A program made the position numbers and the translations under genes. This document shows positions 6,051-23,336 of a stretch of DNA of 41,326 bases, in pieces. The notes below the pieces were generated by a model, which was not told the origin of the DNA, did no database searches, and saw nothing but the letters and a program-made list of their open reading frames with translations. The DNA is from a virus (taxonomy: Duplodnaviria; Heunggongvirae; Uroviricota; Caudoviricetes). Position 1 is the stretch's first letter, and each line of letters begins with the position of its first letter. The stretch covers positions 1 through 41,326 of IMG/VR virus record IMGVR_UViG_2548876945_000011. One strand, 5' to 3'.

Positions 6051-6073
6051 TGTTTTTTAACCTCAACTCATAT

Positions 6074-6370
6074 TCAGATTGCATAAAAGAAACGAACTGA
6101 TGATGCGATGCCTGAGAGTTCTTTCAGTCGTTGATAACTGATGCCGTATTTCTTGTCAGCCTCTTCAATACGAGCTGCGAGTAATGCTACTTCTTTAATG
6201 GCACACACATAACAATCAAATGCTCCCAGAACGTAACCGCCATCAATAATTACCGTAACGTTTTCTTTTTGGGAAATCTGAATAAAACCATGTAATGTAT
6301 TCCCACATTTGAATTCGGCGAGAGAATCGTTAATGACATTAAGTTCAATTTCACATTCAATAATGCTCAT
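6074..6370 (-). CDS. racC: RacC-like protein
   Basis: 98-aa product from MSIIECEIELNVIN... with an AAGGAAA RBS; sits upstream of recE as in Rac. Confidence 0.55.
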   Translation of the reverse strand: MSIIECEIELNVINDSLAEFKCGNTLHGFIQISQKENVTVIIDGGYVLGAFDCYVCAIKEVALLAARIEEADKKYGISYQRLKELSGIASSVRFFYAI

Positions 6371-6444
6371 TTCTGTTTCCTTTTTTAAGATTGATAGAAT
6401 CCCTGCCATTGCTGGCATAAATTCAGTTTCGGATAGTCAGTTAA

Positions 6445-6615
6445 TTAAAGTTCGTGTGCCATCTGGTCTTTTTCGGCACAAGATTCACTGCAATATTTTC
6501 TCGGTTCGTCTTTTGATAAAGTCCCGTGCATGAAGTGGAGCATTCTTTCAATAGCTTTGCTTTCTTCAACGTCTTTTTTGCAAAGGTGGTAAGCACATTT
6601 TATTTTCTTGACCAT
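6445..6615 (-). CDS. ydaE: YdaE-like small zinc-binding protein (below the ORF-track length cutoff)
   Basis: Hand translation gives the 56-aa [56 protein letters not shown]; its ATG overlaps the kilR stop by 1 nt. Confidence 0.6.
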   Translation of the reverse strand: MVKKIKCAYHLCKKDVEESKAIERMLHFMHGTLSKDEPRKYCSESCAEKDQMAHEL

Positions 6616-6836
6616 CACCATGACTCCGCCTTTACAGGTAAACCATCACGACCGAGGAAGACTTTAATCATGCGGTCAGTAATGCATGTTTTTGTGGTCA
6701 GGTTACGAATATAAAGTTTTCGCTTTTTAATATTGTTTGCCGAGGCAATATATGTCCGGCCTTCATGAAGAACATAATCGCCAGGAGTCACACACTGACG
6801 TGGTATTTCATCAGTTCCGAAGTGATGTGCAATCAT
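6615..6836 (-). CDS. kilR: KilR cell-division inhibitor
   Basis: 73-aa product from [21 protein letters not shown]...; matches my memory of Rac KilR; GGAG RBS. Confidence 0.75.
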
Positions 6837-7030
6837 AATTATCTCCATTTTTACAAATGAACTTTGTTGATGCGGTGTCTGGTGCCTCCAGGTGACGTTA
6901 ACCAGTTAACAATTAACGCCGGATACAGAGAACCCACCCATAAGAACCAATACGGAAGTCAACTGGCCTTTTTAACTGTGCCGCGTGCGCTGAGCCGCAT
7001 TCACCGCATCACAAAATTCACTTTAAAAAG

Positions 7031-7070
7031 GGCGGGTATCACAAGGGAAAACAAAAAACGGATACCCGCC
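7031..7070 (-). terminator. Leftward intrinsic terminator upstream of kilR (tL-like)
   Basis: 10-bp inverted repeat GGCGGGTATC/GATACCCGCC; on the minus strand it is followed by CTTTTT. Confidence 0.4.
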
Positions 7071-7295
7071 AAAAGGTAATCAACATGGGTTGTTGCAGCG
7101 GGGTTGTCACTCAGGCGTATGGTCAACCTGACAACCCGGTGCTCCTGTGGGGATTACATGAACCCCCGCCATACTTACCACCGCGCCATTTCGCGGATTG
7201 CCACAACCGGAAGCGCACGGTCGAAGAAATTTAACGACAAGCCTTCTAAGGGAAAAACACCTCCTCCGTGCGCCTTCGTGTTGTGTGCCTGTCTT

Positions 7296-7323
7296 TTTAC
7301 CACTTCAGGCTCGGTGGTATACT
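7296..7323 (+). promoter_or_regulatory. Candidate sigma70 promoter for the zinc-ribbon gene
   Basis: TTTACC, 16-bp spacer, then extended -10 TGgTATACT about 33 nt upstream of the ATG at 7356. Confidence 0.35.
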
Positions 7324-7355
7324 GGAGTTCTCACACAACCAGTAAGGAATTTAGT

Positions 7356-7634
7356 ATGGTAATTACTTCACTCTGCCCTGTTTGTTTGGCTACATCTTCT
7401 GTGCAGACTTTAGTTGAAGGACAGCGCGAATTTTTGAAAATTTATCATTGTCCAAATCATGGTAGTTTTGCCGTTCTTCCTGATCTGGACGTGAAATTGC
7501 AAGCAATGAGGTGTTCGTCGGGTTATAAGATTGAGCATTCGGAAGAGGCTATCAGGCTCGATGCACGCTTACGTGAAAGCATACGCCCAGTAGATGGTCC
7601 TCAGTCGAAAATTCCAGTATTCCGCTCTGTCTAG
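7356..7634 (+). CDS. Small zinc-ribbon-like protein, function unknown
   Basis: 92-aa ORF with CPVC...CPNH motif and AAGGA RBS; occupies the sieB-equivalent position opposite the early-left operon. Confidence 0.5.
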   Translation: MVITSLCPVCLATSSVQTLVEGQREFLKIYHCPNHGSFAVLPDLDVKLQAMRCSSGYKIEHSEEAIRLDARLRESIRPVDGPQSKIPVFRSV

Positions 7635-7646
7635 TTTTCCCCGACT

Positions 7647-7662
7647 GGCACCCTGTGGTGCC
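7647..7662. terminator. GC stem-loop between convergent genes (possible terminator)
   Basis: GGCACC-CTGT-GGTGCC hairpin in the 30-bp gap between the 7634 and 7665 stop codons; no clear U-tract. Confidence 0.3.
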
Positions 7663-7664
7663 GG

Positions 7665-7964
7665 TTACATCTCCTCGATCATCGCATTTGCTACGGCCCG
7701 CAGATCTTCCAGTGCACTTTCAACTTTTGGATCTTTTGCGGTCTCACTGACTTTTTTCATGGCATCAGCCATTCTTTTAATCAGATCATTTGGAGTCTCT
7801 TTCGGGTTAGCAGACACCCTGCTGGCCAGCTCCAGTGCAAGACGTGCATCTTTTGGTGTAATGCCTTTATCTTTTGCCATCTCTGCTGCCAGCTCAGAAA
7901 GCTCGGATGCAAGAGTGAGAACGCTTCTTCCCGTTTTTGACGGATATATATCGTGTGTGAACAT
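7665..7964 (-). CDS. Hypothetical helical protein, first gene of the leftward early operon
   Basis: 99-aa ORF with strong GAGAGGAAAAC RBS; sits where lambda N sits but has no arginine-rich motif. Confidence 0.6.
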   Translation of the reverse strand: MFTHDIYPSKTGRSVLTLASELSELAAEMAKDKGITPKDARLALELASRVSANPKETPNDLIKRMADAMKKVSETAKDPKVESALEDLRAVANAMIEEM

Positions 7965-8133
7965 TGTTTTCCTCTCCCCTTAACGCCGGGGTAGCGGAAC
8001 AAAAACCTGCTGCATAGTTAAAGTTGAACCCTGCCGTCATGTTCTTACGCCTCGGGCTGGCTACTTAACCCCTGACCACTGCCTGGTAACTCGAAGTATT
8101 GCCCTGCATTCTGTGGGGCGGGGTGGGTTGGTA

Positions 8134-8178
8134 TTTTTAGTTTAATAAACATTAAACTTAAGTCAAGTAAAAACTAAA
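8134..8178 (-). promoter_or_regulatory. PL-like leftward promoter with flanking operator half-sites
   Basis: On the minus strand TTGACT, 16-bp spacer, TAAACT; flanked by ACTAAAC and an inverted TTTTAGT; mirrors the PR-like element at 9136-9200. Confidence 0.4.
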
Positions 8179-8249
8179 CCATGGAGCGAACAAACACAAC
8201 GCTTTTGATAAAGTCGTTGCGGTTGTTATGTTTCTATTGGTAGTGAAAG

Positions 8250-8528
8250 TTAGGGAAACTGGCGTCTTGCGTGGATCACGTTTACTACTTCAACGCTTGA
8301 TGTTGTTACGCGGTATAGAATTATATAGTTAGGGTGGGCTACAATCTCACGCAAGCCAGGTACTCTGTCGCTTGGTGGGTATAAATACGGATGTTCGGAT
8401 AACGGCAGCACACAACCCCTTAATCGCTGCCATAAGCGTTCAGCCGCATCTATGTCGAAACGAGCAATATAGCTAGTTATATCATCTAGGTCGGTATCTG
8501 CGCTTTCAAGCCATAACACGGGTAACAT
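8250..8528 (-). CDS. parE: ParE/RelE-superfamily toxin
   Basis: 92-aa product from MLPVLWLESADTDLDDITSYIA... with the ParE-like C-terminal pattern; starts 1 nt after the antitoxin stop. Confidence 0.75.
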   Translation of the reverse strand: MLPVLWLESADTDLDDITSYIARFDIDAAERLWQRLRGCVLPLSEHPYLYPPSDRVPGLREIVAHPNYIILYRVTTSSVEVVNVIHARRQFP

Positions 8529-8529
8529 T

Positions 8530-8721
8530 TTACTGCTTGCTCCGTTCCTTGCGCATTTTAGCAAAGCGTTCTGCCATTCTGCGCTCAACTTCGTCATGGG
8601 GAATTGCTGGGCGCGGATCTGCAAGGCTCGTTGCTACTTTCGCACGCAGCCATTCGTTGTAACTGTTTTCTTGTTCAATGGTTTCAAATTCAGAAACCAT
8701 TGGTGAAAGGGCTCTATTCAT
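8530..8721 (-). CDS. paaA: Antitoxin of the ParE module (PaaA-like)
   Basis: 63-aa product MNRALSPMVSEFETIEQENSYNEWLRAK... with GGAGG RBS, immediately upstream of the toxin; resembles PaaA2 as I remember it. Confidence 0.6.
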   Translation of the reverse strand: MNRALSPMVSEFETIEQENSYNEWLRAKVATSLADPRPAIPHDEVERRMAERFAKMRKERSKQ

Positions 8722-8741
8722 GTTTCCTCCGGTTTTATAAC

Positions 8742-9137
8742 TCAGGCGCGGCGGCATTTTTGCGCCGCAATCCATCTCGCTATGAGATCTTCCATTGATT
8801 CTTTTTTCTGCTTTAACTCGCTGATTATCTGGCGTTGCTCATCCTCAGGGAAGGCTGAAAAAATCTGCAATAATTCCAGTTGATTAGACGTTAACCCTGC
8901 ATGTGGTGGAGAAGCTTCCGGTTGTTCTGCGTATTCCGCATCCAGATACCCTTCCGGCATCCCGTATGTTTGCTCTATTCTTCTGGCAGCCTTTTCTCCA
9001 AACGAGGCCCTCCCACTCATTAGTTGAGATAGGTAGCTCTTCTCTTTGGGTGGCAGAGTTTTATCTTTAAACCACTCCTTGAGACGTAAACGGCGAATTT
9101 CTTTTTTTTGCATGTGGTAATTATCTTTAGTAATCAC
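8742..9137 (-). CDS. paaR: HTH XRE-family repressor (CI analogue, PaaR/RacR-like) lacking a peptidase domain
   Basis: 123-131 aa with HTH (KSYLSQLMSGRASFGEKAARRIEQ); divergent from ydaS; first gene of the repressor-antitoxin-toxin operon. The first in-frame codon is GTG at 9137; the first ATG is at 9113. Confidence 0.7.
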   Translation of the reverse strand: MITKDNYHMQKKEIRRLRLKEWFKDKTLPPKEKSYLSQLMSGRASFGEKAARRIEQTYGMPEGYLDAEYAEQPEASPPHAGLTSNQLELLQIFSAFPEDEQRQIISELKQKKESMEDLIARWIAAQKCRRA

Positions 9138-9200
9138 TAAACAAGCAAATACTTGACTTAATGGTTTATTAAATACTAAACTCGCAAAAAAACACTAAAC
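9136..9200. promoter_or_regulatory. Divergent promoter/operator region (PR-like) with three ACTAAAC repeats
   Basis: ACTAAAC at 9136-9142, 9175-9181 and 9194-9200; TTGACT at 9153-9158 with 18-bp spacer to TAAACT at 9177-9182, upstream of ydaS. Confidence 0.45.
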
Positions 9201-9210
9201 CGAGGAAGGT

Positions 9211-9513
9211 ATGACATTAAAAGAGTTTATTAAATCATTGAGGGTTGGTGATGCTAAGAAATTCGCGGCCAGACTTGGTGTATCGCCATCTTACTTATCG
9301 CAAATGGCGTCTGGACGAGCAGCTATATCTCCAACCCGCGCCCTTATGATCGAATCTGCGACGGAAGGCCAAGTAAGTAGGGCGGAGCTACGACCCCATG
9401 ATTGGGAGCTTATTTGGCCTGAGTATGCGAGCGGCATTCGTTTGGGGCAAACACATGTAGTTCATGCTGAAGGTGATTGTAGTGCATGCTTATCTGATGG
9501 AGTTGATTCATGA
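9211..9513 (+). CDS. ydaS: YdaS-like Cro-type HTH regulator
   Basis: 100-aa ORF (MTLKEFIKSLRVGDAKKFAARLGVSPSYLSQ...) transcribed divergently from the repressor; matches my memory of Rac YdaS. Confidence 0.75.
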   Translation: MTLKEFIKSLRVGDAKKFAARLGVSPSYLSQMASGRAAISPTRALMIESATEGQVSRAELRPHDWELIWPEYASGIRLGQTHVVHAEGDCSACLSDGVDS

Positions 9514-9935
9514 AAATCAAGCATGAACACATCCGCATGGCGATGAATGCCTGGGCGCATCCGGACGGTGAAAAAGTTCCGGCAGCTGAAATAACCAGGG
9601 CTTATTTTGAACTGGGTATGACGTTCCCAGAACTGTATGACGACAGCCATCCGGAAGCCCTGGCTCGTAATACCCAGAAAATTTTCCGCTGGGTGGAGAA
9701 AGACACCCCTGATGCGGTTAAAAAAATTCAGGCGCTGTTACCGGCGATCGAAAAGGCAATGCCACCTCTGCTGGTGGCCCGAATGCGCAGCCACAGTTCA
9801 GCCTATTTTCGGGAGCTGGTGGAGACGCGGGAACGACTGGTGAGAGACGCTGATGATTTTGTCGCAGTGGCGATCGCTGGTTTCAATCAGATGAATCGTG
9901 GTGGCCCGGCGGGAAATGCCGTGGTCGTTCATTAA
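9510..9935 (+). CDS. ydaT: YdaT-like protein (CII-like regulator/toxin family)
   Basis: 141-aa ORF overlapping the ydaS stop by 4 nt (MKIKHEHIRMAMNAWAHPDGEK...). Confidence 0.75.
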   Translation: MKIKHEHIRMAMNAWAHPDGEKVPAAEITRAYFELGMTFPELYDDSHPEALARNTQKIFRWVEKDTPDAVKKIQALLPAIEKAMPPLLVARMRSHSSAYFRELVETRERLVRDADDFVAVAIAGFNQMNRGGPAGNAVVVH

Positions 9936-9956
9936 GAATGGTATAGGAGAAAATCG

Positions 9957-10250
9957 ATGACATTTACAAATGAAGGTCGAATTGTTTTTGATTTTGAGTA
10001 CGAAACTCCATTGCAGAGATTGATTATGTTAAGAATTTTCTGCTCCGGGAGTGGCGATGGTGGGCGTGAAAAGCGTTTTGAAGATCAGGAATTCCGACGT
10101 TTTTGTTGTTGTACGTTTGATGAGTTTGAGCAGGCTATCGCCAAACTTATCGAGATGGGGGTGATTCATAAAATAAGTTATGGATATCAATACGGAAAGC
10201 CATCAAGTGGTTACATCATCAAAGATCCAGATGAAATTATTCAGTTATGA
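9957..10250 (+). CDS. Hypothetical protein
   Basis: 97-aa ORF with GGAGA RBS, overlapping the start of the replication initiator gene. Confidence 0.5.
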   Translation: MTFTNEGRIVFDFEYETPLQRLIMLRIFCSGSGDGGREKRFEDQEFRRFCCCTFDEFEQAIAKLIEMGVIHKISYGYQYGKPSSGYIIKDPDEIIQL

Positions 10251-11212
10251 GTCTTCTTTTTGCTGAACGCCCGCTGGTTATTAACACGCAGCTGGCGATG
10301 AAAATTGGTCTGAACGAAGCCATCGTGTTGCAGCAGCTGCATTACTGGTTGAGAGATACCGGTTCCGGCATGGAATGTGATGGTGTTCGCTGGATTTATA
10401 ACACAACAGAACAATGGCTGGAACAGTTCCCGTTCTGGTCAGAGTCAACGTTAAAACGCGCATTTGCAAGTCTGAAAGCGCTGGGGCTTTTGCGTTGTGA
10501 AAAGCTCAACAAATCAAAGCGTGACATGACTAATTTTTACACGATTAATTACGAGAGCGAGCTTTTAGATGGTGGCAAAGTGAGCGAATCCATCAGGTCA
10601 AAATGCGCCGCTCCATCAGGTCAAAATGACACGATGGAAGAGGCCAAAATGGCACGCTCCATTGGCTCAAAACGACCCAATGTCATCGGGTCAAAATGGC
10701 CTGATGATCTTACAGAGAATACAACAGAGATTACTACAGAGAATAAAAACACTTCTCGTCCGGAAGCTTTGCAACCGGACATGCAGACGGCTGAACAGGA
10801 TTTTTTAACCCGACACCCTGACGCGGTTGTGTTCAGTGCGAAAAAACGCCAGTGGGGCAACCAGGAGGATTTAGCGTGTGCGCAGTGGATCTGGGGACGA
10901 ATCGTGAGTCTTTACGAGCAGGCTGCCAGCGATGATGGCGAAATCATGCGACCGAAAGAACCCAACTGGACTGCATGGGCCAATGATGTGCGCACAATGC
11001 GGATGCTGGATGGCAGAACTCACAGACAAATTTGCGAAATGTTTGGTCGGGTACAGCGGGATCCATTCTGGGTAAAAAACGTCATGAGCCCGTCAAAGCT
11101 TCGCGAAAAATGGGATGAGCTGGTTATTCGTCTGGGGCGTTCACCTGTACAGCGTTGCGTGAATCACATTTCTGAACCGGACACCGAAATTCCGCCGGGC
11201 TTCAGGGGGTAA
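10247..11212 (+). CDS. Replication initiator / replisome organiser (lambda O-like)
   Basis: 321-aa ORF immediately upstream of the DnaC-like gene; contains iterons inside its coding sequence, as lambda O contains ori. Confidence 0.65.
   Translation: MSLLFAERPLVINTQLAMKIGLNEAIVLQQLHYWLRDTGSGMECDGVRWIYNTTEQWLEQFPFWSESTLKRAFASLKALGLLRCEKLNKSKRDMTNFYTINYESELLDGGKVSESIRSKCAAPSGQNDTMEEAKMARSIGSKRPNVIGSKWPDDLTENTTEITTENKNTSRPEALQPDMQTAEQDFLTRHPDAVVFSAKKRQWGNQEDLACAQWIWGRIVSLYEQAASDDGEIMRPKEPNWTAWANDVRTMRMLDGRTHRQICEMFGRVQRDPFWVKNVMSPSKLREKWDELVIRLGRSPVQRCVNHISEPDTEIPPGFRG
10592..10698. repeat. Candidate replication origin: five iterons (consensus ATCrGGTCAAAATG)
   Basis: Direct repeats starting near 10592, 10615, 10638, 10661 and 10685 at about 23-bp spacing, followed by three ACAGAGAwT repeats at 10711-10745. 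Confidence 0.6.
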
Positions 11213-11218
11213 CGAAGC

Positions 11219-11719
11219 ATGAAAAATATTGCGACAGGCGGTGTTCTTGAACGCATCCGTAAGCTGGCTCCGCAGCATGTAACCGCGCCATACCGAACAG
11301 TGGACGAGTGGCGCGAGTGGCAACTTGCTGAAGGCCAGAAACGTAGCGAGGAGATCAACCGCCTGAATCGCCAGTTGCGGGTGGAAAAAATTCTGAATCG
11401 CTCAGGCATCCAGCCGTTGCACCGCAAGTGCTCGTTTGCGAATTACCAGGTGCAGAACGAAGGGCAGCGATACGCGTTAAGCCAGGCGAAATCCATCGCC
11501 GATGAACTGATGACCGGGTGTACAAATTTTGCGTTCAGCGGAAAACCTGGTACCGGGAAAAATCACTTAGCGGCAGCTATCGGGAATCGCCTGCTGAAAG
11601 ACGGTCAGACAGTGATTGTGGTTACCGTGGCTGATGTTATGAGCGCCCTGCACGCCAGCTATGACGACGGGCAGTCAGGCACGCAAAAGTTGCAGGACTG
11701 GATGATGCCGATACCGTAA
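11219..11719 (+). CDS. DnaC-like helicase loader, apparently C-terminally truncated
   Basis: Walker A GKPGTGKNHLAAAIG present, but the ORF stops at 166 aa, before the expected Walker B region, against about 245 aa for DnaC-family proteins. Confidence 0.6.
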   Translation: MKNIATGGVLERIRKLAPQHVTAPYRTVDEWREWQLAEGQKRSEEINRLNRQLRVEKILNRSGIQPLHRKCSFANYQVQNEGQRYALSQAKSIADELMTGCTNFAFSGKPGTGKNHLAAAIGNRLLKDGQTVIVVTVADVMSALHASYDDGQSGTQKLQDWMMPIP

Positions 11720-11876
11720 CGCTTAAGGAAGTGACAGAAGCATTGTTGCATTGTGCGGAACAGATTCGCGCGCCTGAATAATTAAATTTAGTGTTGTAAA
11801 TAAAATTTAATCCTTAACCGGAGGGATTTCTGCACCCTCAGAACATCAGGAGGCCGCCCGAAAGGGCGGTAATGAA

Positions 11877-12059
11877 ATGCGAAAGTTCAGAATAATTATT
11901 GAAACGGGAATAGCTGGTGGAGATTTTGAGGATGTATTCGAAGTGGATGATGGTGCGACACCAGATGAAATACAGGACGAAGCAAAAGAAATTTTCTTTA
12001 ACTACTGCAATTACTCATATCACGAAATAAAAGATGAGGAGGAAGAACAAAATGGCTGA
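11877..12059 (+). CDS. Small highly acidic protein
   Basis: 60 aa with 18 D/E against 5 K/R; AGGAGG lies 23 nt upstream, separated from the ATG by a CCGCCC-GAAA-GGGCGG hairpin. Confidence 0.45.
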   Translation: MRKFRIIIETGIAGGDFEDVFEVDDGATPDEIQDEAKEIFFNYCNYSYHEIKDEEEEQNG

Positions 12060-12228
12060 TTTTGGTTCAACTAAATACAACGTCAGTTTTGAAGAATGGC
12101 ATGAACTGTTAATGGACTATGCAGAGTTACGCGGTGGAAGTGCCGCTGATGCTGAAGCATGGCGTGATGACTACGAAGCAGGAAAAACTCCGGTCGAAGC
12201 ATATTGTGATGAGTGGGGCGATGAATGA
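12052..12228 (+). CDS. Small acidic protein
   Basis: 58 aa from MADFGSTKYNV... with 16 D/E against 4 K/R; GGAGGAAG RBS; start overlaps the previous gene's end. Confidence 0.45.
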   Translation: MADFGSTKYNVSFEEWHELLMDYAELRGGSAADAEAWRDDYEAGKTPVEAYCDEWGDE

Positions 12229-12439
12229 GCGAGATTAATTATCAGGAAGGACATGATTTCGTTATGCTTGATGGAGGGCGCTATATATTTTCCTCGCACC
12301 TGTGATAAAAATGATGAGCCGAGACTGTATTTACGGGACGCTGAGAGAATACCATAGAAAAGCTTATCTAACTTAAGTAGAATTGCTGCGGGTGCTTGAG
12401 GCTATCTGCCTCAGGCATGAACACCAAAGGCAGATAGAG

Positions 12440-12510
12440 AAAAGCCCCAGTTAACATTACGCGTCCTGCAAGACGCTTAACATTAATCTGAGGCTCAATC
12501 TATGAACGGC
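12440..12510 (-). ncRNA. sok: Sok-like antisense RNA (antitoxin of the hok locus)
   Basis: Minus-strand promoter TTGCCT (12545-12540), 17-bp spacer, TAACCT (12522-12517); the transcript would be complementary to the mok start region. Ends are approximate. Confidence 0.4.
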
Positions 12511-12558
12511 AAATCTAGGTTAGCCTCTTACGTGCCGAAAGGCAAGGAGAAGCAGGCT

Positions 12559-12714
12559 ATGAAGCAGCAAAAGGCGATGTTAATCGCCCTGATCGTCATC
12601 TGTTTAACCGTCATAGTGACGGCACTGGTAACGAGGAAAGACCTCTGCGAGGTACGAATCCGAACCGGCCAGACGGAGGTCGCTGTTTTCGTAGACTACG
12701 AATCTGAGAAGTAA
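12559..12714 (+). CDS. hok: Hok/Gef-family type I membrane toxin
   Basis: 51-aa MKQQKAMLIALIVICLTVIVTALVTRKDLCEVRIRTGQTEVAVF...; closely matches the HokD/RelF and HokC sequences I remember; in-frame mok-like leader from 12502. Confidence 0.8.
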   Translation: MKQQKAMLIALIVICLTVIVTALVTRKDLCEVRIRTGQTEVAVFVDYESEK

Positions 12715-12784
12715 GAGTGACCAGGCGGGAGAGTAATCTCCCGCCACCTCTGATGTGTCGGCATCCTCAACGCACCCGCGCTTA

Positions 12785-12806
12785 ACCCGCTTCGGCGGGT
12801 TTTTTG
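12785..12806 (+). terminator. Intrinsic terminator of the hok transcript
   Basis: ACCCGC-TTCG-GCGGGT hairpin followed by TTTTTTGTTTT; preceded by a 9-bp perfect hairpin at 12724-12745 (fbi-like 3' element). Confidence 0.6.
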
Positions 12807-12880
12807 TTTTACGTATTCTGGTTTACAATCCACAGGCCAGCCTGAACAACTGGCACCTGCTGCGCCAGCGGAGAACTACG

Positions 12881-13480
12881 ATGGCGCATATACAACTGGT
12901 CAAACAAACCTCTTCCGGATTACTTCTCCCGGCGACGCCGGAGAGTTGCGATTTTTTGCATCAAATCAAAATAGGTGAGTGGATACACGCAGACTTTAAG
13001 CGTGTGCGTAACTACGCATTCCACAAGCGTTTTTTCAAACTCCTGCAACTGGGATTCGATTACTGGACTCCGGTCGGTGGGGCGATCACGCCTCGCGAAC
13101 GAAAACTGGTATCAGGCTTCGTTGATTACCTGTGCGAATCAGTAGGTCGGGAACACACTCCAGCCCTGAGTGATGCCGCAGAGCAATACCTTAATACAGT
13201 TGCGACATGCAGAACCCGGGATACGGCATTGCTAAAGTCGTTTGACGCTTTCCGCGAGTGGGTAACCATTCAGGCCGGATTTTACACCGAGCATATTTAT
13301 CCTGATGGTAGTCGTGGGCGCAGGGCAAAATCTATCGCATTTGCGAACATGGACGAAACCGAGTTTCAGCAGGTTTATAAATCTGTACTGAATGTGCTGT
13401 GGAACTGGATCCTGTTCCGTAAATTTTCCTCTCCGGAGGAAGTCGAAAATGTGGCCGTGCAGCTGCTGGAGTTTGCGTAA
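12881..13480 (+). CDS. Conserved lambdoid nin-region protein (possibly DUF1367-like)
   Basis: 199-aa product from MAHIQLVKQTSSG... with GGAGA RBS; the upstream part of the tracked ORF overlaps the hok terminator and is unlikely to be coding. Confidence 0.55.
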   Translation: MAHIQLVKQTSSGLLLPATPESCDFLHQIKIGEWIHADFKRVRNYAFHKRFFKLLQLGFDYWTPVGGAITPRERKLVSGFVDYLCESVGREHTPALSDAAEQYLNTVATCRTRDTALLKSFDAFREWVTIQAGFYTEHIYPDGSRGRRAKSIAFANMDETEFQQVYKSVLNVLWNWILFRKFSSPEEVENVAVQLLEFA

Positions 13481-13770
13481 TGGTGGATTTACGTAAAGCG
13501 GCGCGGGGCCAGATGTGCCAGGTCAGAATCCCTGGCTACTGCAATCACAATCCCGAAACGTCTGTGCTGGCGCATTACCGACTGGCGGGAACGTGCGGAA
13601 CGGCGATAAAGCCACACGATATGCAGGCAGCGATTGCCTGTAGCTCGTGCCACGATTTAATCGACGGGCGGGTAAAAACCAGCGATTACACCAAAGAAGA
13701 ATTACGCCTGATGCACGCAGAAGGTGTTTTTCGCACACAAGAAATCTGGAGAAAGGAAGGTTATTTATGA
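13480..13770 (+). CDS. ybcO: YbcO-like putative nuclease (DUF1364)
   Basis: 96-aa ORF with conserved Cys pattern (CQVRIPGYCN...CSSCHD); resembles DLP12 YbcO as I remember it. Confidence 0.65.
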   Translation: MVDLRKAARGQMCQVRIPGYCNHNPETSVLAHYRLAGTCGTAIKPHDMQAAIACSSCHDLIDGRVKTSDYTKEELRLMHAEGVFRTQEIWRKEGYL

Positions 13771-14321
13771 TTTACCCAACGAATACAGGAAAAAGCGGAG
13801 AACACCTTCGTCTCACCACGCTGGAAAGTGTCTGGATTCAGGGAAAACTGCGTATGTGGGGGCGCTGGTCGTATATTGGTGGCGGTAAGACGGGGAATAT
13901 GTTCAACCAGTTGTTGACCTCTAAAAAGCTGACAAAAACGGAAATTAACGAGGCGCTCCGCAGGATGAAAAAAGCAGGTCTGGACAAACCTGAACTTGAG
14001 GCTTTTTTGCGGGGTATGATTAACGGCAAGCAAAAGAGCTGGCTGGCACATTGTACCGATTCAGAGGCATTAATAATCGACAGGGTTATTGGCGAAGTAC
14101 TGGCAGAACACCCAGGATTGATTTGTATCCTCCAGCAACGATATGAAGGGAGTGGGATGACTAAGCGAAAAATGGCTGAATTGCTGAATGATTCACACCC
14201 TGAGTGGTGTTACGCCACGTGCCGTAATCGCATAGATGCGTGGTTGAAAATGGCAGAGTTTATGCTCTATCTGCCGATGCGTGATGCATTCTCTTCCGGG
14301 GATTTAAAAACTGTCTGTTGA
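13767..14321 (+). CDS. Putative late antiterminator (Q-like)
   Basis: 184-aa ORF coupled to ybcO by an ATGA overlap; a promoter-plus-terminator pair follows directly; assignment by position and weak motif resemblance only. Confidence 0.4.
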   Translation: MIYPTNTGKSGEHLRLTTLESVWIQGKLRMWGRWSYIGGGKTGNMFNQLLTSKKLTKTEINEALRRMKKAGLDKPELEAFLRGMINGKQKSWLAHCTDSEALIIDRVIGEVLAEHPGLICILQQRYEGSGMTKRKMAELLNDSHPEWCYATCRNRIDAWLKMAEFMLYLPMRDAFSSGDLKTVC

Positions 14322-14347
14322 CTCAATCTGTTATCCGGGGCTATATT
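14318..14347 (+). promoter_or_regulatory. Candidate late promoter (PR'-like)
   Basis: TTGACT overlapping the Q-like stop codon, 18-bp spacer, TATATT. Confidence 0.35.
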
Positions 14348-14407
14348 TCCGAAGCGCCAGCAAAATCTGGCGTCGGGATTGGAACCCCGGATATCGAAAC
14401 GGTGCAT

Positions 14408-14427
14408 ACCGCGCTGGCGGTTTTTTT
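14408..14427 (+). terminator. Candidate tR'-like terminator
   Basis: ACCGC-GCTG-GCGGT hairpin followed by T7, about 60 nt downstream of the candidate late promoter. Confidence 0.4.
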
Positions 14428-14590
14428 ATGCGCTAAGCACAGTCACATTCGCGATTTATGGCGGGCTGTGTGGGGGCACCGAAAGGTGCACCGGATGTTT
14501 CGACCGGTAGTTCCAACCCTGCACAGTTCGCCACCCGATGATTGGAACCTGAAGGTGGTGAGGTAAAAATTATCGAAACGCGAGGTCGTT

Positions 14591-15154
14591 ATGACTGTTC
14601 AAGTTGCTGTCAAAAACCTTTCCCCTGTCACTTATAACCAGATTCCTGTAATCACAACTGAGTTACTCGCCCGCCTTTACGGAACAGAAGCAATCCGTAT
14701 ACAGCAGAATCACCATAAAAATAAATCTCGATTTATTGAGGGAAAACACTTCTTTAAAGCTGTTGGTGATGAGCTCAAAAATTTGCGACTAGTTTTAAAC
14801 GAGTCGCAAAATGAGGTGAAAATTTCTCCAAAAACCCGCTCCCTCATCCTCTGGACAGAACGCGGCGCAGCCCGCCACGCAAAAATGCTCGAAACCGATC
14901 AGGCGTGGGATGTGTTCGAAAGACTGGAAGACTGCTATTTCAGACAAAAGGATCCGTCAGCGCCAGTTTCATGCCAGAAAAGTTACGACACGCGAGTTCT
15001 CTGTTATCAGCGAGGCGGTGTCACTGTTTCCACAATTCAGTTGCGGGATGATGATATTGTTATTTCCCTTGAGTCATGGCTGGAACTGGCGAGAGCCAAT
15101 GGTTGGTTTGTTGTTCGCAGAGATAAACTGGTGGAAAGGCTGATGCAGCTTTAA
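14591..15154 (+). CDS. ORF6N-domain protein (antirepressor-like N-terminal domain)
   Basis: 187 aa; motifs NKSRFIEGKHFF and LILWTERGAARHAKMLETDQAWDVFERLE match my memory of the ORF6N family. Confidence 0.65.
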   Translation: MTVQVAVKNLSPVTYNQIPVITTELLARLYGTEAIRIQQNHHKNKSRFIEGKHFFKAVGDELKNLRLVLNESQNEVKISPKTRSLILWTERGAARHAKMLETDQAWDVFERLEDCYFRQKDPSAPVSCQKSYDTRVLCYQRGGVTVSTIQLRDDDIVISLESWLELARANGWFVVRRDKLVERLMQL

Positions 15155-15244
15155 AAAAGTTCTTGCAATTTTAGCCATAAACTGCTTCAATCCCAGTACG
15201 CTTCGCAAAGCTGTATCGCGAGGCGAACCAAGCGCATGAACTTT

Positions 15245-15283
15245 ACCAGAACCCGCCATTGAGCGGGTTTTGTTGTTTCTGGT
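15245..15283 (+). terminator. Intrinsic terminator after the ORF6N gene
   Basis: CCCGC-CATTGA-GCGGG hairpin with outer ACCAGAA/TTCTGGT pairing, followed by TTTTGTTGTTT. Confidence 0.55.
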
Positions 15284-15387
15284 ACTGGCGAACCTGATGT
15301 TTCATTTCTGAAGCGCGATTCCTGGCGGAATACCTAGAATCGAGACATTCTGGTAAAATTGTGTTCAGTACAGGATGTGGAGGTGAG

Positions 15388-15957
15388 ATGAGAGAACTAC
15401 CTAAAGTTTATTTTTTAGGAGTAGATGATGAGCTCGTCGATTATCTTGAAAAACAAGGGGAAGAGACGATACGAGAGATTCATCTTTCTAACAAAACCAA
15501 TGTTGAGAATGGATACAAACTTCTGAACATTCAGATTGTTGGAATTGGCTCATCTTTTTTATTGCTGACACAGAAAACTAATTTCGATTTTCTCACCGCC
15601 GGAATTACCACATTTACATTACTATGGACATGGTGCGCCATTTACTTGGTATGTACTGGTTTATCTGTGAAGGTTAGGGGCCTGATCAATGCCCCTCCTG
15701 ATCATCTATATCATGAAAAATATAAGGATATGGAGCCCTCGAGCTTTAAAATATTCGCTGATGCAGGATATTTAGGACCTGATAAGTTATTGCCGCTTAT
15801 ACGAAGGTATCGCCTTGTTGACTTGAGTGATACAGCAAGAGAGTTACTGTTGGAAAATGAGAAAATCCGCACGAGTCTCGATAAAGCAAGGATGTATACC
15901 ATCCTTGCTCCGGTAGCGGCGATGTTTATCTCGGCTGTTTTTTTATATGTTCAATGA
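15388..15957 (+). CDS. Hypothetical membrane protein (cargo gene between late promoter and lysis cassette)
   Basis: 189 aa from MRELPKVYFLG...; GGAGGTG RBS; about three predicted hydrophobic helices; visibly AT-rich relative to flanking genes. Confidence 0.55.
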   Translation: MRELPKVYFLGVDDELVDYLEKQGEETIREIHLSNKTNVENGYKLLNIQIVGIGSSFLLLTQKTNFDFLTAGITTFTLLWTWCAIYLVCTGLSVKVRGLINAPPDHLYHEKYKDMEPSSFKIFADAGYLGPDKLLPLIRRYRLVDLSDTARELLLENEKIRTSLDKARMYTILAPVAAMFISAVFLYVQ

Positions 15958-16087
15958 CTGAGTCGGCAGAATCTCCAACAAAAACACGACGTGTAGCAAA
16001 GTCTGCAGTACTTTGTGTTGGAGTTGGTTTTGGTGCCACGGGTTGCTGAGGTTTATTTTCACCTTGTGGCTTGTTTTTTTCAGACAT
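15926..16087 (-). CDS. Small proline-rich hypothetical protein, convergent with the membrane protein gene
   Basis: 53 aa (MSEKNKPQGENKPQQPVAPKPTPTQ...) with AGAGGA RBS 5 nt upstream; 3' ends of the two genes overlap by about 30 nt. Confidence 0.4.
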   Translation of the reverse strand: MSEKNKPQGENKPQQPVAPKPTPTQSTADFATRRVFVGDSADSVIEHIKKQPR

Positions 16088-16181
16088 AAAAATCCTCTTT
16101 GTTTGAATTGTTACTTTTGGCGATTTAACGATATCAAACACGAGTATATACCGCCAGAAGCTTAATCTGGCACTCCATCTG

Positions 16182-16206
16182 GCCCCGGCATGTCCCGGGG
16201 CTTTTT
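16182..16206 (+). terminator. Intrinsic terminator upstream of the holin gene
   Basis: 7-bp GC stem GCCCCGG/CCGGGGC with 6-nt loop, followed by TTTTT. Confidence 0.6.
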
Positions 16207-16304
16207 CGTTGTTAGGCTCCGGAAACATCCTCGACTTCTTGTTAGCAAGACTGAGAGCCTGAATCTTACACTTAGCACCATCCGAACTCTCGGAGGTGAG
16301 GCTT

Positions 16305-16646
16305 ATGAAAATGCACAATGCCCCTCATTCCTGGCCTGACTTACTGGAACTCTTACAAAGTTGGTGGCGTGGAGATACGCCGCTGGGCGCAGTGGTTATG
16401 TCAATTATTATGGCTGGTTTGCGCATTGCCTATTTTGGCGGTGGCGGCGGCTGGAAACGAAAAACGCTTGAGATTCTGCTTTGTGGTGCTCTGACGCTGA
16501 CCTTTGCATCCGCGCTTGAGTATGTCGGATGGCCTAAATCACTTTCTGTTGCCATTGGTGGTGGGGTGGGGCTGATTGGTGTTGATGCTATTCGTGGTGC
16601 GGCAATGAGGGTCATCGGTAACAAGTTCGGTGCCCATAAGGAGTAA
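16305..16646 (+). CDS. Holin, lambda S family, with dual-start motif
   Basis: Begins M-K-M (ATG AAA ATG) after GGAGGTGAGG; S-like hydrophobic architecture; immediately precedes the endolysin. Confidence 0.8.
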   Translation: MKMHNAPHSWPDLLELLQSWWRGDTPLGAVVMSIIMAGLRIAYFGGGGGWKRKTLEILLCGALTLTFASALEYVGWPKSLSVAIGGGVGLIGVDAIRGAAMRVIGNKFGAHKE

Positions 16647-16649
16647 TTA

Positions 16650-17126
16650 ATGCAGACACTTAATTCCCAGCGTAAAGCTTTCCTTGATATGGTGGCATGG
16701 TCAGAAGGAACGGATAACGGGCGACAACCGACACGTAACCACGGTTATGATGTTATTGTTGGTGGCGAACTGTTCACTGATTACTCCGATCACCCTCGCA
16801 AACTTGTCACGCTAAATCCGAAACTCAAATCAACAGCCGCCGGACGTTACCAGCTTCTTTCACGCTGGTGGGATGCCTACCGCAAGCAACTTGGTCTGAA
16901 AGATTTTTCTCCAGAAAGCCAGGATGCTGTAGCGCTGCAGCAGATTAAAGAGCGTGGCGCTTTACCGATGATTGACCGCGGCGATATTCGTCAGGCAATC
17001 GACCGTTGCAGCAATATCTGGGCGTCGTTACCTGGTGCAGGTTACGGTCAGTATGAACATAGAATCGGTGACCTGATTTCCCGATTTAAAGAAGCTGGTG
17101 GGGTGGTAAATGAAGCTGAGATATAA
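16650..17126 (+). CDS. Endolysin, lambda R-like lytic transglycosylase
   Basis: 158 aa with long stretches matching lambda R as I remember it (NQRKAFLDM.AWSEGTDNGRQ.TRNHGYDVIVGGELFTDYSDHPRKLV...). Confidence 0.9.
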   Translation: MQTLNSQRKAFLDMVAWSEGTDNGRQPTRNHGYDVIVGGELFTDYSDHPRKLVTLNPKLKSTAAGRYQLLSRWWDAYRKQLGLKDFSPESQDAVALQQIKERGALPMIDRGDIRQAIDRCSNIWASLPGAGYGQYEHRIGDLISRFKEAGGVVNEAEI

Positions 17127-17502
17127 GCTGGTTATTGTTGCCTTCTTTGTTACCGTCATCGGTTCTTTTATCTGGTCTGCCGGGCATTACTACAGCAAAT
17201 ATCAACACGAAAAGGAGCGTGCTGATGAGGCTGTACGAAATGCTGAATCTGCAACAGCCATTACCAGTAACGTCCTGCAATCACTGCAAATCATCAATAC
17301 AGTTATAGAGGCTAACCAGCATGCAAAACAGCAGATCGCACTGGAGTCACAGAGAACCCAGGAAGATATCAAAGTGGCTGTTGCGGATGATGATTGTGCT
17401 GTTCGTATCGTTCCTTCTGGCGCAGTTAAGCGGTTGCACGAATACGCGAACGGTATACGTGTCGGTGCCGGTCGTTCCGTTACCAGCCAGTCTGACGGAT
17501 GA
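17110..17502 (+). CDS. Rz-like i-spanin
   Basis: 130 aa with N-terminal TM helix and coiled-coil region; overlaps the endolysin end; contains the Rz1 start in another frame. Confidence 0.7.
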   Translation: MKLRYKLVIVAFFVTVIGSFIWSAGHYYSKYQHEKERADEAVRNAESATAITSNVLQSLQIINTVIEANQHAKQQIALESQRTQEDIKVAVADDDCAVRIVPSGAVKRLHEYANGIRVGAGRSVTSQSDG

Positions 17503-17665
17503 AACACCCCAGCCAGATTTACCCGACCCGTTTACGTGGGGAGCCAGCCTTAACCTGAATGTTGCGTTGTTGTCAGCGTTAGCACAGTGCAACAGGGATA
17601 AGGCCGATATCAGGACTTTTGAGAAAAACAGGGCAGCACAAACCAATGGCACGATTAAACGTTGA
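17387..17665 (+). CDS. Rz1-like o-spanin lipoprotein
   Basis: Signal peptide with lipobox LAQLSGC and proline-rich mature region; starts inside Rz in another frame and extends 163 nt past its stop. Confidence 0.55.
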   Translation: MMIVLFVSFLLAQLSGCTNTRTVYVSVPVVPLPASLTDETPQPDLPDPFTWGASLNLNVALLSALAQCNRDKADIRTFEKNRAAQTNGTIKR

Positions 17666-17831
17666 AGTTATCCCACCAGACAGCGAAACGATGAACGGGA
17701 TTTTTGCAGAGATTGAACGTAAATATGCGCATCAGCCGATGACGCAAAAAGTTATCGATGAAATGCAACGCGAAGCGGCGCGCCTTGTAAGGCGAGCGAC
17801 AAACACGAAGGTTACGTTTGTTCGGGACTGA
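17646..17831 (+). CDS. Small hypothetical protein
   Basis: 61 aa from MARLNVEVIPPD... between the spanins and the terminase; no recognisable motif. Confidence 0.35.
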   Translation: MARLNVEVIPPDSETMNGIFAEIERKYAHQPMTQKVIDEMQREAARLVRRATNTKVTFVRD

Positions 17832-17888
17832 CATTACAGAAGCTCCTTTGATAAGGGGCTTCGATAATGTCACTAAGAGGAAAAATTC

Positions 17889-18638
17889 ATGGCAAAACCG
17901 GACTGGGAGGCCATCGAATCGGCATACCGGGCCGGAGTCCTTAGCCTCCGTGATATAGGCGAGAAATACGGCGTTACAGAAGGGGCTATCAGGAAGAGGG
18001 CCAAAAAGCTTGGTTGGGTACGCAGTGGCGGTACGCAGGTTTGCAAAAATGGTACGCAAAAAAGAAAAGTGCGTACCAGCAGAAAGCCTGCCATTACTGG
18101 CCTTACACAAAAAGGTACGCAACTAAAAACAGAACCTACACTGGATACGAAACCGATACGCGGAATGCGTACCGATCCCCCGACTAACCCATTCCAACCC
18201 GGTAACCAACAGGCATTAAAACACGGTGGTTATGCCCGTCGCCTTCTGCTCAAAGATGAGGTGATAGAGGACGCTAAAGCGTTGACGCTCGAGGACGAAT
18301 TATTTCGCCTTCGTGCTAACAACCTTGTCGCTGCAGAGAATATCGGTCGGTGGCTGGTGTCGCTGGAAGATGCTAATGGGGACCAGGAAAGGAAGATGCT
18401 GATGGAAAATATCAGCGCCGCCGAGAAAGCAATGATGCGCAATACAGTTCGTATTGAGTCCATCGTTGGCACGCTTGCGACGGTAGGAAAAATATTTGCT
18501 GATACAGCCTACCGCAAGGCCGCCACTGATAAGGTGTCTCTGGAGGCTGATCGTCTTCGCCGTGATGCAGGTATTGATGATGGCAATGGAGAGCGTGACC
18601 TCAATGACTTCTATTCTGACATCCAAACCGACGCTTAA
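17889..18638 (+). CDS. Terminase small subunit
   Basis: 249 aa with N-terminal HTH-like segment; AAGAGGAAA RBS; immediately upstream of and overlapping the large terminase. Confidence 0.7.
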   Translation: MAKPDWEAIESAYRAGVLSLRDIGEKYGVTEGAIRKRAKKLGWVRSGGTQVCKNGTQKRKVRTSRKPAITGLTQKGTQLKTEPTLDTKPIRGMRTDPPTNPFQPGNQQALKHGGYARRLLLKDEVIEDAKALTLEDELFRLRANNLVAAENIGRWLVSLEDANGDQERKMLMENISAAEKAMMRNTVRIESIVGTLATVGKIFADTAYRKAATDKVSLEADRLRRDAGIDDGNGERDLNDFYSDIQTDA

Positions 18639-20007
18639 TCCGGCTTTACGTAGTTTCTGGACTACGCGGGCACGTAACAAAGTGCTTTATGGTGGCCGGT
18701 CATCGTCAAAATCATGGGATGCCGCTGGCATTGCCATATTTCTGTCGAATAAATACACCCTGCGTTTTTGTTGTGCCCGTCAGATCCAGAATAAAATCGA
18801 AGAGTCGGTGTATACCCTGCTCAAAATTCAGATAGACAGGTTTGGCCTGCGGCACCGTTTCCGGATTCTGAACAACAAAATCATTAACCGGGTTACTGGC
18901 TCGGAATTTGTTTTTTATGGATTATGGCGCAACATCGAAGAAATTAAGTCACTGGAGGGGATCGACGTGTTGTGGCTGGAAGAAGCCCACGCACTGACTG
19001 AATACCAGTGGAAAATTCTGGAGCCAACGATCCGTAAAGAGGGTTCGGAATGCTGGTTCATATTCAACCCCGGACTTGTTACTGATTTCGTCTGGCGTAA
19101 CTTCGTTGTTGATCCGCCTGAAGGCACTCTCATCCGCAAAATTAACTATGACGAAAATCCGTTTCTGTCTGACACCATGCTTAAGGTTATCGACGCGGCG
19201 CGACGCCGTGATCCGGATGGTTTTAAACATGTGTATGAGGGCGTTCCGGAGTCTGATGATGATGCGGCAATCATCAAACTGTCCTGGATAGAAGCCGCAG
19301 TGGATGCGCACAAAACGTTAAATTTCGAACCCAGTGGAAGAAAGCGTATTGGCTTTGACGTGGCTGACAGTGGTACAGATAAGTGCGCTAACGTTTACCG
19401 TCACGGTTCCGTTGTTTTCTGGGCCGACGAATGGAAGGCCAAAGAAGATGAATTACTGAAGAGCTGCCAGCGTACTTATCAGTCGGCGCTGGAGCGTGAA
19501 GCAGATATTGTTTACGACTCTATCGGTGTTGGTGCGTCTGCCGGTGCTAAATTCTCTGAAATTAACGCTGACCGGAAGAGCGAGAATGCATACGCGCGAC
19601 GTGTGAATTACCAGAGGTTTAACGCCGGCGCTGGTGTGCATGAACCAGATGACGAATACAACGGCATCCCCAACAAAGACTTTTTCGCAAATCTTAAGGC
19701 TCAGGCATGGTGGCTGGTGGCTGACCGTTTCAGAAATACGTTTAACGCCATTAACAACGGAGAACAGTATCCTGTGGATGAGCTGATCAGCATAGATTCT
19801 CGTTGTCCGTTGCTTGAAAAGCTGAAACTGGAACTGACAACACCTCATCGTGATTTCGACCGTAACGGACGTGTGATGGTCGAAAGTAAAAAAGACCTCG
19901 CAAAACGCGAGATACCGTCACCAAACGTTGCTGACGCATTCATTATGGCCTTCGCGCCAATTGATACATCGCTGGATATCTGGGAACAGCTGGGGAGACA
20001 GGCCTGA
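18604..20007 (+). CDS. Terminase large subunit
   Basis: About 468 aa with ATPase and nuclease-like regions; start chosen at MTSILTSKP inside the tracked ORF; followed by portal. Confidence 0.85.
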   Translation: MTSILTSKPTLNPALRSFWTTRARNKVLYGGRSSSKSWDAAGIAIFLSNKYTLRFCCARQIQNKIEESVYTLLKIQIDRFGLRHRFRILNNKIINRVTGSEFVFYGLWRNIEEIKSLEGIDVLWLEEAHALTEYQWKILEPTIRKEGSECWFIFNPGLVTDFVWRNFVVDPPEGTLIRKINYDENPFLSDTMLKVIDAARRRDPDGFKHVYEGVPESDDDAAIIKLSWIEAAVDAHKTLNFEPSGRKRIGFDVADSGTDKCANVYRHGSVVFWADEWKAKEDELLKSCQRTYQSALEREADIVYDSIGVGASAGAKFSEINADRKSENAYARRVNYQRFNAGAGVHEPDDEYNGIPNKDFFANLKAQAWWLVADRFRNTFNAINNGEQYPVDELISIDSRCPLLEKLKLELTTPHRDFDRNGRVMVESKKDLAKREIPSPNVADAFIMAFAPIDTSLDIWEQLGRQA

Positions 20008-22098: not shown

Positions 22099-22112
22099 AT
22101 CGCAGGTAACAC

Positions 22113-23333: not shown

Positions 23334-23336
23334 AAA

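Follow-up and report, generated by a model that had tools for sequence, protein, structure and literature searches.

A Rac-like lambdoid prophage very probably carries an intact hok/mok/sok type I toxin-antitoxin module of the hokW/sokW type

RESULTS

Identification of the locus

The window analyzed here, the whole 41,326-nucleotide (nt) stretch of IMG/VR virus record IMGVR_UViG_2548876945_000011, very probably carries an intact hok/mok/sok type I toxin-antitoxin module of the hokW/sokW type, which belongs to the hokD clade. The carrier is a Rac-like lambdoid prophage integrated beside yebY and ryeA-ryeB. An original prediction, made from the letters of the DNA, had placed a complete hok/sok-type locus at 12380 to 12810, made up of a 51-amino-acid Hok-family open reading frame (ORF) preceded by an in-frame mok-like leader and a 5′ stem-loop, a minus-strand TTGCCT-17-TAACCT promoter positioned to produce a Sok-like RNA complementary to the mok start, a perfect 9-bp 3′ hairpin, a fold-back-like pairing between 5′ and 3′ segments, and a terminator. 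Each of these elements was located as predicted (Table 1), and the likely hok promoter begins at 12355, just to the left of the predicted interval. All canonical RNA elements of the family, as defined in the R1 model (PMC9841398), are present, namely, the 5′-end translational activator element (tac), the metastable 5′ hairpin, the upstream complementary box (ucb), the mok Shine-Dalgarno sequence (SD), dcb, the Sok promoter and hairpin, the hok SD, the fold-back inhibitory element (fbi), and the terminator.

The Pfam profile HOK_GEF (PF01848) recognized the Hok ORF with a score of 79.8 bits (cutoff, 22; E = 1.1e-22), and the Rfam model RF01794 (sok/hok-leader) was matched over its whole length with 111.7 bits (gathering score, 59; E = 9e-25). 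Because RF01794 describes the hok leader and was matched on the plus strand, whereas Sok belongs to the minus strand, this hit was counted for the locus and not for Sok transcription. The NCBIfam Hok subfamily model, which represents another Hok branch, gave only an uninformative hit below its cutoff (53.6 versus 73). Weak Rfam matches in the region (ceN48, rsmX, P9, and CsrC) were dismissed as far under their gathering scores. When folded, the predicted 417-nt mRNA had a minimum free energy (MFE) of −172.7 kcal/mol, compared to −125.4 ± 5.7 kcal/mol for shuffled sequences (z = −8.4). We conclude that the elements of the locus are not there by chance, because the Pfam, Rfam, and mRNA-fold scores are all far beyond chance.

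Predicted folds of the hok mRNA

The full-length MFE structure was closed by pairing of tac with fbi through 12 bp with one bulged C at 12771, a duplex worth −21.5 kcal/mol in the window. In the same structure, AGCC of ucb (12443 to 12446) paired with GGCU of the mok SD region (12492 to 12495), and the hok SD AAGGAG (12544 to 12549) was sequestered, with its AGGAG (12545 to 12549) paired to CUCUU (12525 to 12529). To mimic 3′-shortened RNAs, the 3′ end was cut back to 12746 to 12764 in four truncations, and in the MFE structures of three of the four, GGG-GCUU at 12390 to 12397 paired with AAGC-CCC at 12442 to 12448 and GAGGCU folded onto AGCCUC. Drawn on the window sequence, the Rfam consensus contained the tac/ucb stem, an inner stem, the Sok-complement hairpin, and the SD/dcb hairpin. 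The 5′ stem-loop formed whether the RNA was full length or shortened and is part of the Rfam consensus structure, and the metastable hairpin was predicted for the first 30 to 50 nt of the nascent RNA with an MFE of −19.6 kcal/mol.

Conservation and covariation of the RNA elements

A protein-seeded scan that took one genome per species recovered 47 loci from Escherichia, Shigella, Kluyvera, Citrobacter, Pantoea, Erwinia, and Photorhabdus, and 32 loci, ranging from Escherichia to Photorhabdus plus R1, were aligned for covariation analysis. For the full-length structure, 83% of cells paired, compared to 40 to 45% when the partners were slid, and 42 pairs had changed on both sides, compared to 15 to 25 when slid. 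A tac-fbi duplex of about 12 bp and −18 to −26 kcal/mol was found in 30 of the 35 loci with a recognizable tac; the exceptions were a hokC locus (L019), two loci with one interior mismatch (L029 and L034), one with a 13-bp bulged duplex (L032), and one with no real duplex (L045). Moreover, the tac/fbi pair GGGUGC/GCACCC of Escherichia becomes GGGCGC/GCGCCC in Photorhabdus and Pantoea, and a second compensatory change converts GAGG/CCUC into GAGA/UCUC, a G-C to A-U replacement. The Photorhabdus fbi, which has no bulge, was misregistered by MAFFT, which lowers the apparent pairing of that helix (helix 1), and the duplex calculation made locus by locus is the better test.

The local hairpins gave a similar picture in the same 32 loci. 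The metastable hairpin paired in 95% of cells, compared to 29 to 54% when slid, and one of its positions was double-changed in 12 sequences. Position 4 of tac covaried both with its fbi partner and with its metastable-hairpin partner (UA 18 and CG 12 in each case), consistent with one nucleotide serving successive structures. The 5′ stem-loop (helix 2) was 92.5% paired and the 3′ untranslated region (UTR) hairpin (helix 18) was 95% paired, each with three double-changed pairs, and the hok SD helix (helix 8) was 99% paired. The tac/ucb stem was 99% paired but invariant, and the pairs of the SD/dcb core GAGGC/GCCUC were 97 to 100% conserved. Among 49 unique close homologs from IMG/VR and genomes, nucleotide diversity was 0 to 0.06 in tac, ucb, SD, dcb, the promoter hexamers, and fbi, compared to 0.33 in an adjacent patch at 12495 to 12516.

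Promoters, mok, and the antisense RNA

A generic promoter scan of 12200 to 13000 listed a single sigma-70-like site, the probable hok promoter. Phage 933W and a Rac-type phage fragment (Rac442) share its −10 element and the 6-nt distance from there to GGGTGC, and R1 has the parallel arrangement TATGAT-6 nt-GGCGC. The position of the promoter places the start of the transcript at about G12390. Downstream, the mok frame agrees with the mokW annotation of 933W, and its SD GAGG (12490 to 12493) lies 8 nt upstream of the ORF. An ATG occupied the mok-start column in 46 of the 49 close homologs and was in frame with hok in 40 of them, and the N-terminal residues of Mok were not conserved.

The putative Sok RNA was placed by transfer of the sokW annotation, as alignment of the window to 933W had no indels across the Sok segment. 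So placed, Sok would span the mok SD and start codon, in agreement with the predicted complementarity, and would begin 7 nt downstream of the TAACCT hexamer; its predicted fold of −31.2 kcal/mol was more stable than that of shuffled sequences (z = −5.4). TTGCCT-17-TAACCT matched the 41-kb window once and was absent from all 100 shuffles. The segment 12517 to 12558, which includes this promoter, is identical to that of 933W/Sp5, such that the window promoter is base for base that of sokW, and it is positionally homologous to TTGCGC-17-TATCCT of R1. The sok promoter was called because its sequence equals that of the validated promoter of sokW and because of this positional homology.

The sokW promoter was validated in a pro-less mutant in which primer YO-421 replaces TAGGTTAG by CCGGCTCG and thereby destroys exactly this TAACCT −10 element (Takada et al., PMC8621323). 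When the sok −10 element of hokW-sokW was mutated, protection was abolished and was restored in part by sokW supplied in trans, and sokW RNA was seen by Northern blotting in Sp5 lysogens (PMC8621323).

Comparison with known hok/sok loci

Megablast found similar DNA in 4,725 of 5,426 complete E. coli genomes, at a median of two places per genome and usually annotated hokD, and in 79 phage records; 3,862 E. coli genomes had a place that spanned 80% or more of the query. The RefSeq name hokD denotes the protein clade of these homologs and not the truncated architecture found in K-12. The original prediction had called for alignment to hokC/gef, hokD, and R1 loci including their RNA elements. When the window was aligned with 933W, Rac442, K-12 hokD, and an R1-type plasmid hok, it had the same order of elements as R1 and a full leader, which is shared by 933W and Rac442 and is lacking in K-12 hokD.

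The closest characterized relative is hokW-sokW-mokW of 933W/Sp5 (AF125520, Plunkett annotation), which is 95% identical to the window at the DNA level from tac to fbi. Window Hok and HokW are the same protein (100% identity), the two loci do not differ in the sok promoter, hok SD, tac, ucb, mok SD, dcb, or fbi, and mokW is in frame with hok and of the same length as the window mok. The two differ in the Sok 5′ tail and mok codons 2 to 4, which read AACGGCAAATC in the window and CTGAACACATG in 933W. HokW is toxic and resides in the inner membrane; sokW counteracts its toxicity (Takada et al. 2021, PMC8621323). In Sp5, sokW RNA vanishes after mitomycin C treatment in a RecA-dependent manner and HokW is then found in the inner membrane, shorter hokW RNAs with a partial dependence on RNase III were reported, and deletion of hokW-sokW delays growth arrest and halves phage release (PMC8621323). 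Thus, antisense RNA and toxicity have already been demonstrated for an identical protein and promoter, in the Sp5 copy rather than the window copy.

R1 hok/sok shares with the window both the order of its elements (promoter, tac, metastable hairpin, ucb, Sok complement, mok SD, dcb overlapping the sok promoter, hok, 3′ hairpin, fbi, and terminator) and their switching logic. In the R1 model, the metastable hairpin holds tac during transcription, a tac/fbi stem closes the full-length mRNA while ucb covers the mok SD, and 3′ trimming follows (Le Rhun et al., PMC9841398). R1 Hok is about 44% identical to HokW (PMC8621323). The R1 locus resides on a plasmid whereas that of the window is borne by a prophage, and tac reads GGGUGC in the window but GGCGC in R1, with a matching change in fbi. 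The Sok hairpin is longer in the window than in R1, with a window Sok of about 71 nt; R1 Sok is 64 nt.

The hokD (relF) locus of the cryptic Qin prophage of K-12 resembles the window in its coding region, 3′ hairpin, fbi, and terminator, and in its position upstream of the late-regulatory genes of a lambdoid prophage; the protein differs only in its last residues (TAYEPEE). In contrast, K-12 hokD has nothing homologous to the window more than about 20 nt before the ATG, where relBE lies instead, and therefore lacks the hok promoter, tac, ucb, mok, and sok. The window keeps its full leader and has no relE directly upstream, which bears out the earlier proposal that its regulatory elements are intact, unlike those of the decayed Qin locus. 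We conclude that K-12 hokD is a truncated version of the clade to which the window locus belongs. A leaderless relE-hokD junction was also seen in E. coli ECDA1023 (L012) and in a Kluyvera sp. (L031), and the locus of E. coli ECMA0423 (L011) carried a point-mutated tac, GACTGCATGTGGC.

The hokC (gef) loci (L020 to L027) have in common with the window the tac sequence GGGTGCTTGAGGC, ucb, SD/dcb, and an fbi with a bulged C, and their proteins are 78 to 80% identical to Hok of the window. They differ in having a shorter Sok hairpin and a TATAAT promoter, in being chromosomal and not part of a prophage, and in their mok, which is out of the hok frame through a one-base insertion before CAAGGAG.

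In sum, the window contains a Hok/Gef-family membrane toxin ORF of about 50 amino acids, an overlapping upstream mok frame with its own SD through which hok would be translationally coupled, and, at the level of sequence, a cis antisense Sok that has its own promoter and is complementary to the mok initiation region. Long-range tac-fbi pairing is predicted to close the full-length mRNA, and folding predicts both a metastable 5′ hairpin that holds tac and alternative tac/ucb and mok-SD/dcb pairings in the 3′-shortened RNA. Other traits of the family are activation of the mRNA by slow exonucleolytic processing from the 3′ end, cleavage of the Sok-mRNA duplex by RNase III, and a toxic Hok that is neutralized by Sok. 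We assign the locus to the hok/sok loci because every family feature that can be checked in silico was found.

Table 1. Positions of the elements of the hok/mok/sok locus in the window
Feature	Coordinates	Strand	Description
Probable hok promoter	12355–12383	+	−35 TAGAAA (12355–12360), 17-nt spacer, −10 TAGAAT (12378–12383)
Full-length hok mRNA (predicted)	12390–12806	+	About 417 nt
tac	12390–12401	+	5′-end translational activator element, GGGTGCTTGAGG
Metastable 5′ hairpin (predicted)	12392–12418	+	GUGCUUGAGGC / GCCUCAGGCAU, 11 bp, loop UAUCU
5′ stem-loop	12402–12437	+	Perfect 10-bp stem, CTATCTGCCT (12402–12411) / AGGCAGATAG (12428–12437)
Sok antisense RNA (putative)	12440–12510	−	About 71 nt; single-stranded 5′ tail, long hairpin, GGGGCUUUUCU tail; coordinates from sokW annotation
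ucb	12442–12448	+	Upstream complementary box, anti-SD of mok, AAGCCCC
mok SD/dcb Sok-target hairpin, shortened mRNA (predicted)	12490–12527	+	GAGGCU (12490–12495) / AGCCUC (12522–12527); mok start in loop
mok frame	12502–12714	+	70 codons, in frame with hok
sok promoter (putative)	12517–12545	−	−35 TTGCCT (12545–12540), 17-nt spacer, −10 TAACCT (12522–12517)
hok toxin gene	12559–12714	+	51 amino acids, MKQQKAMLIALIVICLTVIVTALVTRKDLCEVRIRTGQTEVAVFVDYESEK
UACG hairpin	12692–12706	+	Stem UAGA/UCUG, loop CUACGAA; candidate TadA A-to-I site A12698 (Tyr47 to Cys)
3′-UTR hairpin	12724–12745	+	Perfect 9 bp, GGCGGGAGA-GTAA-TCTCCCGCC
fbi	12765–12777	+	Fold-back inhibitory element, CCTCAACGCACCC
Intrinsic terminator of hok mRNA	12784–12806	+	AACCCGC-TTCG-GCGGGTT (12784–12801), then T-run TTTTTGTTTT

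A hypervariable patch at the Sok 5′ tail and the mok start

The 22-nt patch at 12495 to 12516, with its core at 12505 to 12509, corresponds to the loop of the Sok-target hairpin, to mok codons 1 to 5, and to the Sok 5′ tail. Diversity among the 49 close homologs reached 0.57 in the core, compared to 0.06 at hok third-codon positions and 0 to 0.05 in the flanking SD, −10, dcb, and −35 sequences. Consistent with these values, the 10-nt bin from 12500 to 12509 had the highest column entropy (1.02 bits), while bins in the hok coding sequence ranged from 0 to about 0.5 and were mostly at or below 0.16. There were 25 distinct patch variants among the 49 homologs, and copies residing in the same genome always differed in the patch, as judged from the few genomes sampled. 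Since the patch comprises both the Sok-target loop and the Sok 5′ tail, it could set Sok specificity. One tentative reading, which we regard as possible but rather doubtful, is that the patch is a rapidly diversifying specificity barcode such that each hok/sok copy is silenced only by its own Sok. The patch data, which are limited, may fit diversifying selection, relaxed constraint, or mosaic recombination.

A candidate TadA editing site in hok

Codon 47 of hok (Tyr) falls within a hairpin that has a 7-nt loop, CUACGAA, matching the anticodon loop of the tRNA-Arg(ACG) argV at every base. TACGAA was invariant in all 32 aligned loci, and the hairpin stem covaried; taken alone, the local hairpin was thermodynamically undistinctive (z = −0.3). 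TadA editing of the equivalent Tyr to Cys has been reported for K-12 hokC, hokD, and hokE (PMC5630033). The loop identity and the stem covariation make the Tyr47 hairpin a candidate site of A-to-I editing by TadA.

Prophage context

The window hok is flanked by a DnaC/YdaV-like gene and small ORFs on one side and by DUF1367, YbcO, and DUF1133/antiterminator-Q-like genes on the other, a setting for which the earlier description as a nin-like region is apt. In the best genomic match, E. coli CDE6306, the order is yebY, integrase, ralR, recET, kilR, immunity and replication genes, hokD, DUF1367, DUF1364/YbcO, a DUF1133 Q-like gene, and lysis and head genes. The window is a mosaic relative to CDE6306: positions 1 to 7035 are 98.8% identical and positions 12857 to 25100 are 99.98% identical, and between them (7035 to 12857; immunity, replication, and nin) matches are confined to the ydaV fragment and the hok locus, at 93 to 95%. 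The DnaC/YdaV-like helicase-loader ORF (11219 to 11719) is only 166 amino acids long and is truncated at about residue 154 to 166; the Pfam IstB_IS21 match covers profile positions 42 to 152 of 238, and similarity to the 248-amino-acid ydaV product of CDE6306 ends at about 11680. The prophage may be replication defective.

At the left end of the window, Rfam identified the convergent small RNAs SraC/RyeA and SdsR/RyeB, and also RalA (219 bits), at 463 to 607 and 2169 to 2347. The ryeA/ryeB site, next to yebY, is the integration neighborhood of the prophage. RalA, which neighbors the ralR gene of this prophage, adds a second type I antitoxin RNA. Matches to isrK (72 bits) and C4 antisense RNA (73 bits) lie a short way downstream of the DUF1133/Q-like gene, at 14354 to 14538; the two are the usual small-RNA pair of P4/lambdoid late-control regions. 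A mechanically called ORF of 241 amino acids (12755 to 13480), which starts with a GTG at 12755, extends over the hok fbi and terminator. Its Pfam DUF1367 match begins at residue 43, and for that reason the real DUF1367 gene most likely starts at ATG 12881 and encodes 199 amino acids, as in annotated homologs.

DISCUSSION

Here we report that a locus in a Rac-like lambdoid prophage is very probably an intact member of the hok/sok loci. The locus is of a very common, already annotated, and experimentally characterized kind; it is already known in the sense that the family, its prophage copies, its function in a prophage, and its enrichment in prophages are all documented. A survey based on the Hok coding sequence found hok to be enriched in prophages (10.1101/2025.08.07.668861).

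From the sequence, folds, and covariation presented here, together with experiments on R1 and hokW, we infer both ends of the transcripts, their 3′ processing, the turnover of Sok, the coupling of mok to hok, and the biological role. A weak constitutive promoter would produce a stable mRNA of about 417 nt, and during its synthesis tac would be held in the metastable hairpin. In the finished RNA, tac would move onto fbi, ucb would cover the mok SD, and the hok SD would be sequestered, and as a consequence the RNA would be neither translated nor bound by Sok. Slow 3′ trimming would then strip the terminator and fbi, after which tac would pair with ucb and the mok SD would enter the SD/dcb hairpin. 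The opened RNA would have one of two fates: it would be bound by the unstable Sok of about 71 nt and destroyed or, once Sok is gone, mok would be translated and hok with it by coupling. The 51-amino-acid Hok would enter the inner membrane and kill or lyse the cell. Such a module would most likely benefit the resident prophage, either by addiction (post-segregational killing) or, by analogy with hokW-sokW of Sp5, by earlier lysis and an approximately 2-fold higher phage release after induction.

Several observations weigh against this account. The function of the window copy is read from its sequence, with the experiments having been done on other copies, and a classical addiction role for the window locus is uncertain. 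The generic promoter scan gave only the plus-strand site and did not list the sok promoter, because the TAACCT −10 element matches only three of six consensus bases by our own comparison. The tac/ucb stem and the SD/dcb core do not vary, and covariation is neither for nor contrary to them. With respect to lysis, a terminator directly follows fbi in the window, K-12 hokD, and Rac442 but not in 933W, and hokW of 933W is near the right end of the prophage by a ygiW-like gene whereas the window copy is in the replication-to-Q region. Due to the different position and the missing terminator, the lysis-helper role of hokW may not transfer to the window copy. Finally, the adjoining DnaC/YdaV-like gene is truncated, and thus the prophage may be defective.

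The truncated replication gene also bears on whether the locus might be a structurally intact but silent relic that is weakly transcribed, never activated, and carried passively by prophage recombination, like the chromosomal hok loci of K-12. Chromosomal hokA, hokB, and hokC gave neither post-segregational killing nor rifampicin activation (summarized in 10.1101/2025.08.07.668861), and both the sok and hok promoters of the window are weak by consensus. We nonetheless consider a silent relic quite improbable, as all regulatory elements are intact and visibly constrained among the close homologs relative to the adjacent patch, the toxin does not differ from HokW, and hokW-sokW, a near-identical locus, is active in its own prophage. 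Decayed copies, moreover, look otherwise, with the leader gone from K-12 hokD and tac mutated in L011. Mere resemblance, in which a short hydrophobic ORF happens to be flanked by hairpins, draws on nothing further than the general frequency of short ORFs and hairpins. That explanation is already refuted, and its probability is negligible, given Pfam and Rfam scores far over curated cutoffs, the fold z score, the long-range covariation, and 95% identity to an annotated and tested locus.

An alternative role for an active module is abortive-infection defense, in which a lytic phage shuts off host transcription, Sok decays, and Hok kills the cell before the incoming phage can mature. When carried on a high-copy plasmid, R1 hok/sok cut the plating efficiency and plaque size of T4 (cited in PMC8621323), and prophages often carry defense genes (discussed in 10.1101/2025.08.07.668861). 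The survey that discusses such genes found no enrichment of hok beside defense systems, however, and the only prophage copy studied directly aids the release of the resident phage itself (PMC8621323). Defense as the main function is therefore unlikely, though less so than a silent relic, and we favor a benefit to the resident prophage through addiction or lysis.

Since the work on plasmid R1, hok/sok has served as a paradigm for control by antisense RNA and for the programmed refolding of RNA. The value of the window locus as a discovery is small, and its use lies in annotation, as it would be recorded as a complete, probably active module and not as the truncated K-12 form. A complete module is relevant when this prophage region is cured, deleted, or cloned. 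The window copy is also a natural variant of hokW-sokW, with the same toxin and a different Sok tail, and is suited to tests of Sok specificity. If the patch is indeed a specificity barcode, several prophage copies with identical toxins could coexist in one genome, each working as an addiction or lysis-timing module of its own, and no prophage could disarm another.

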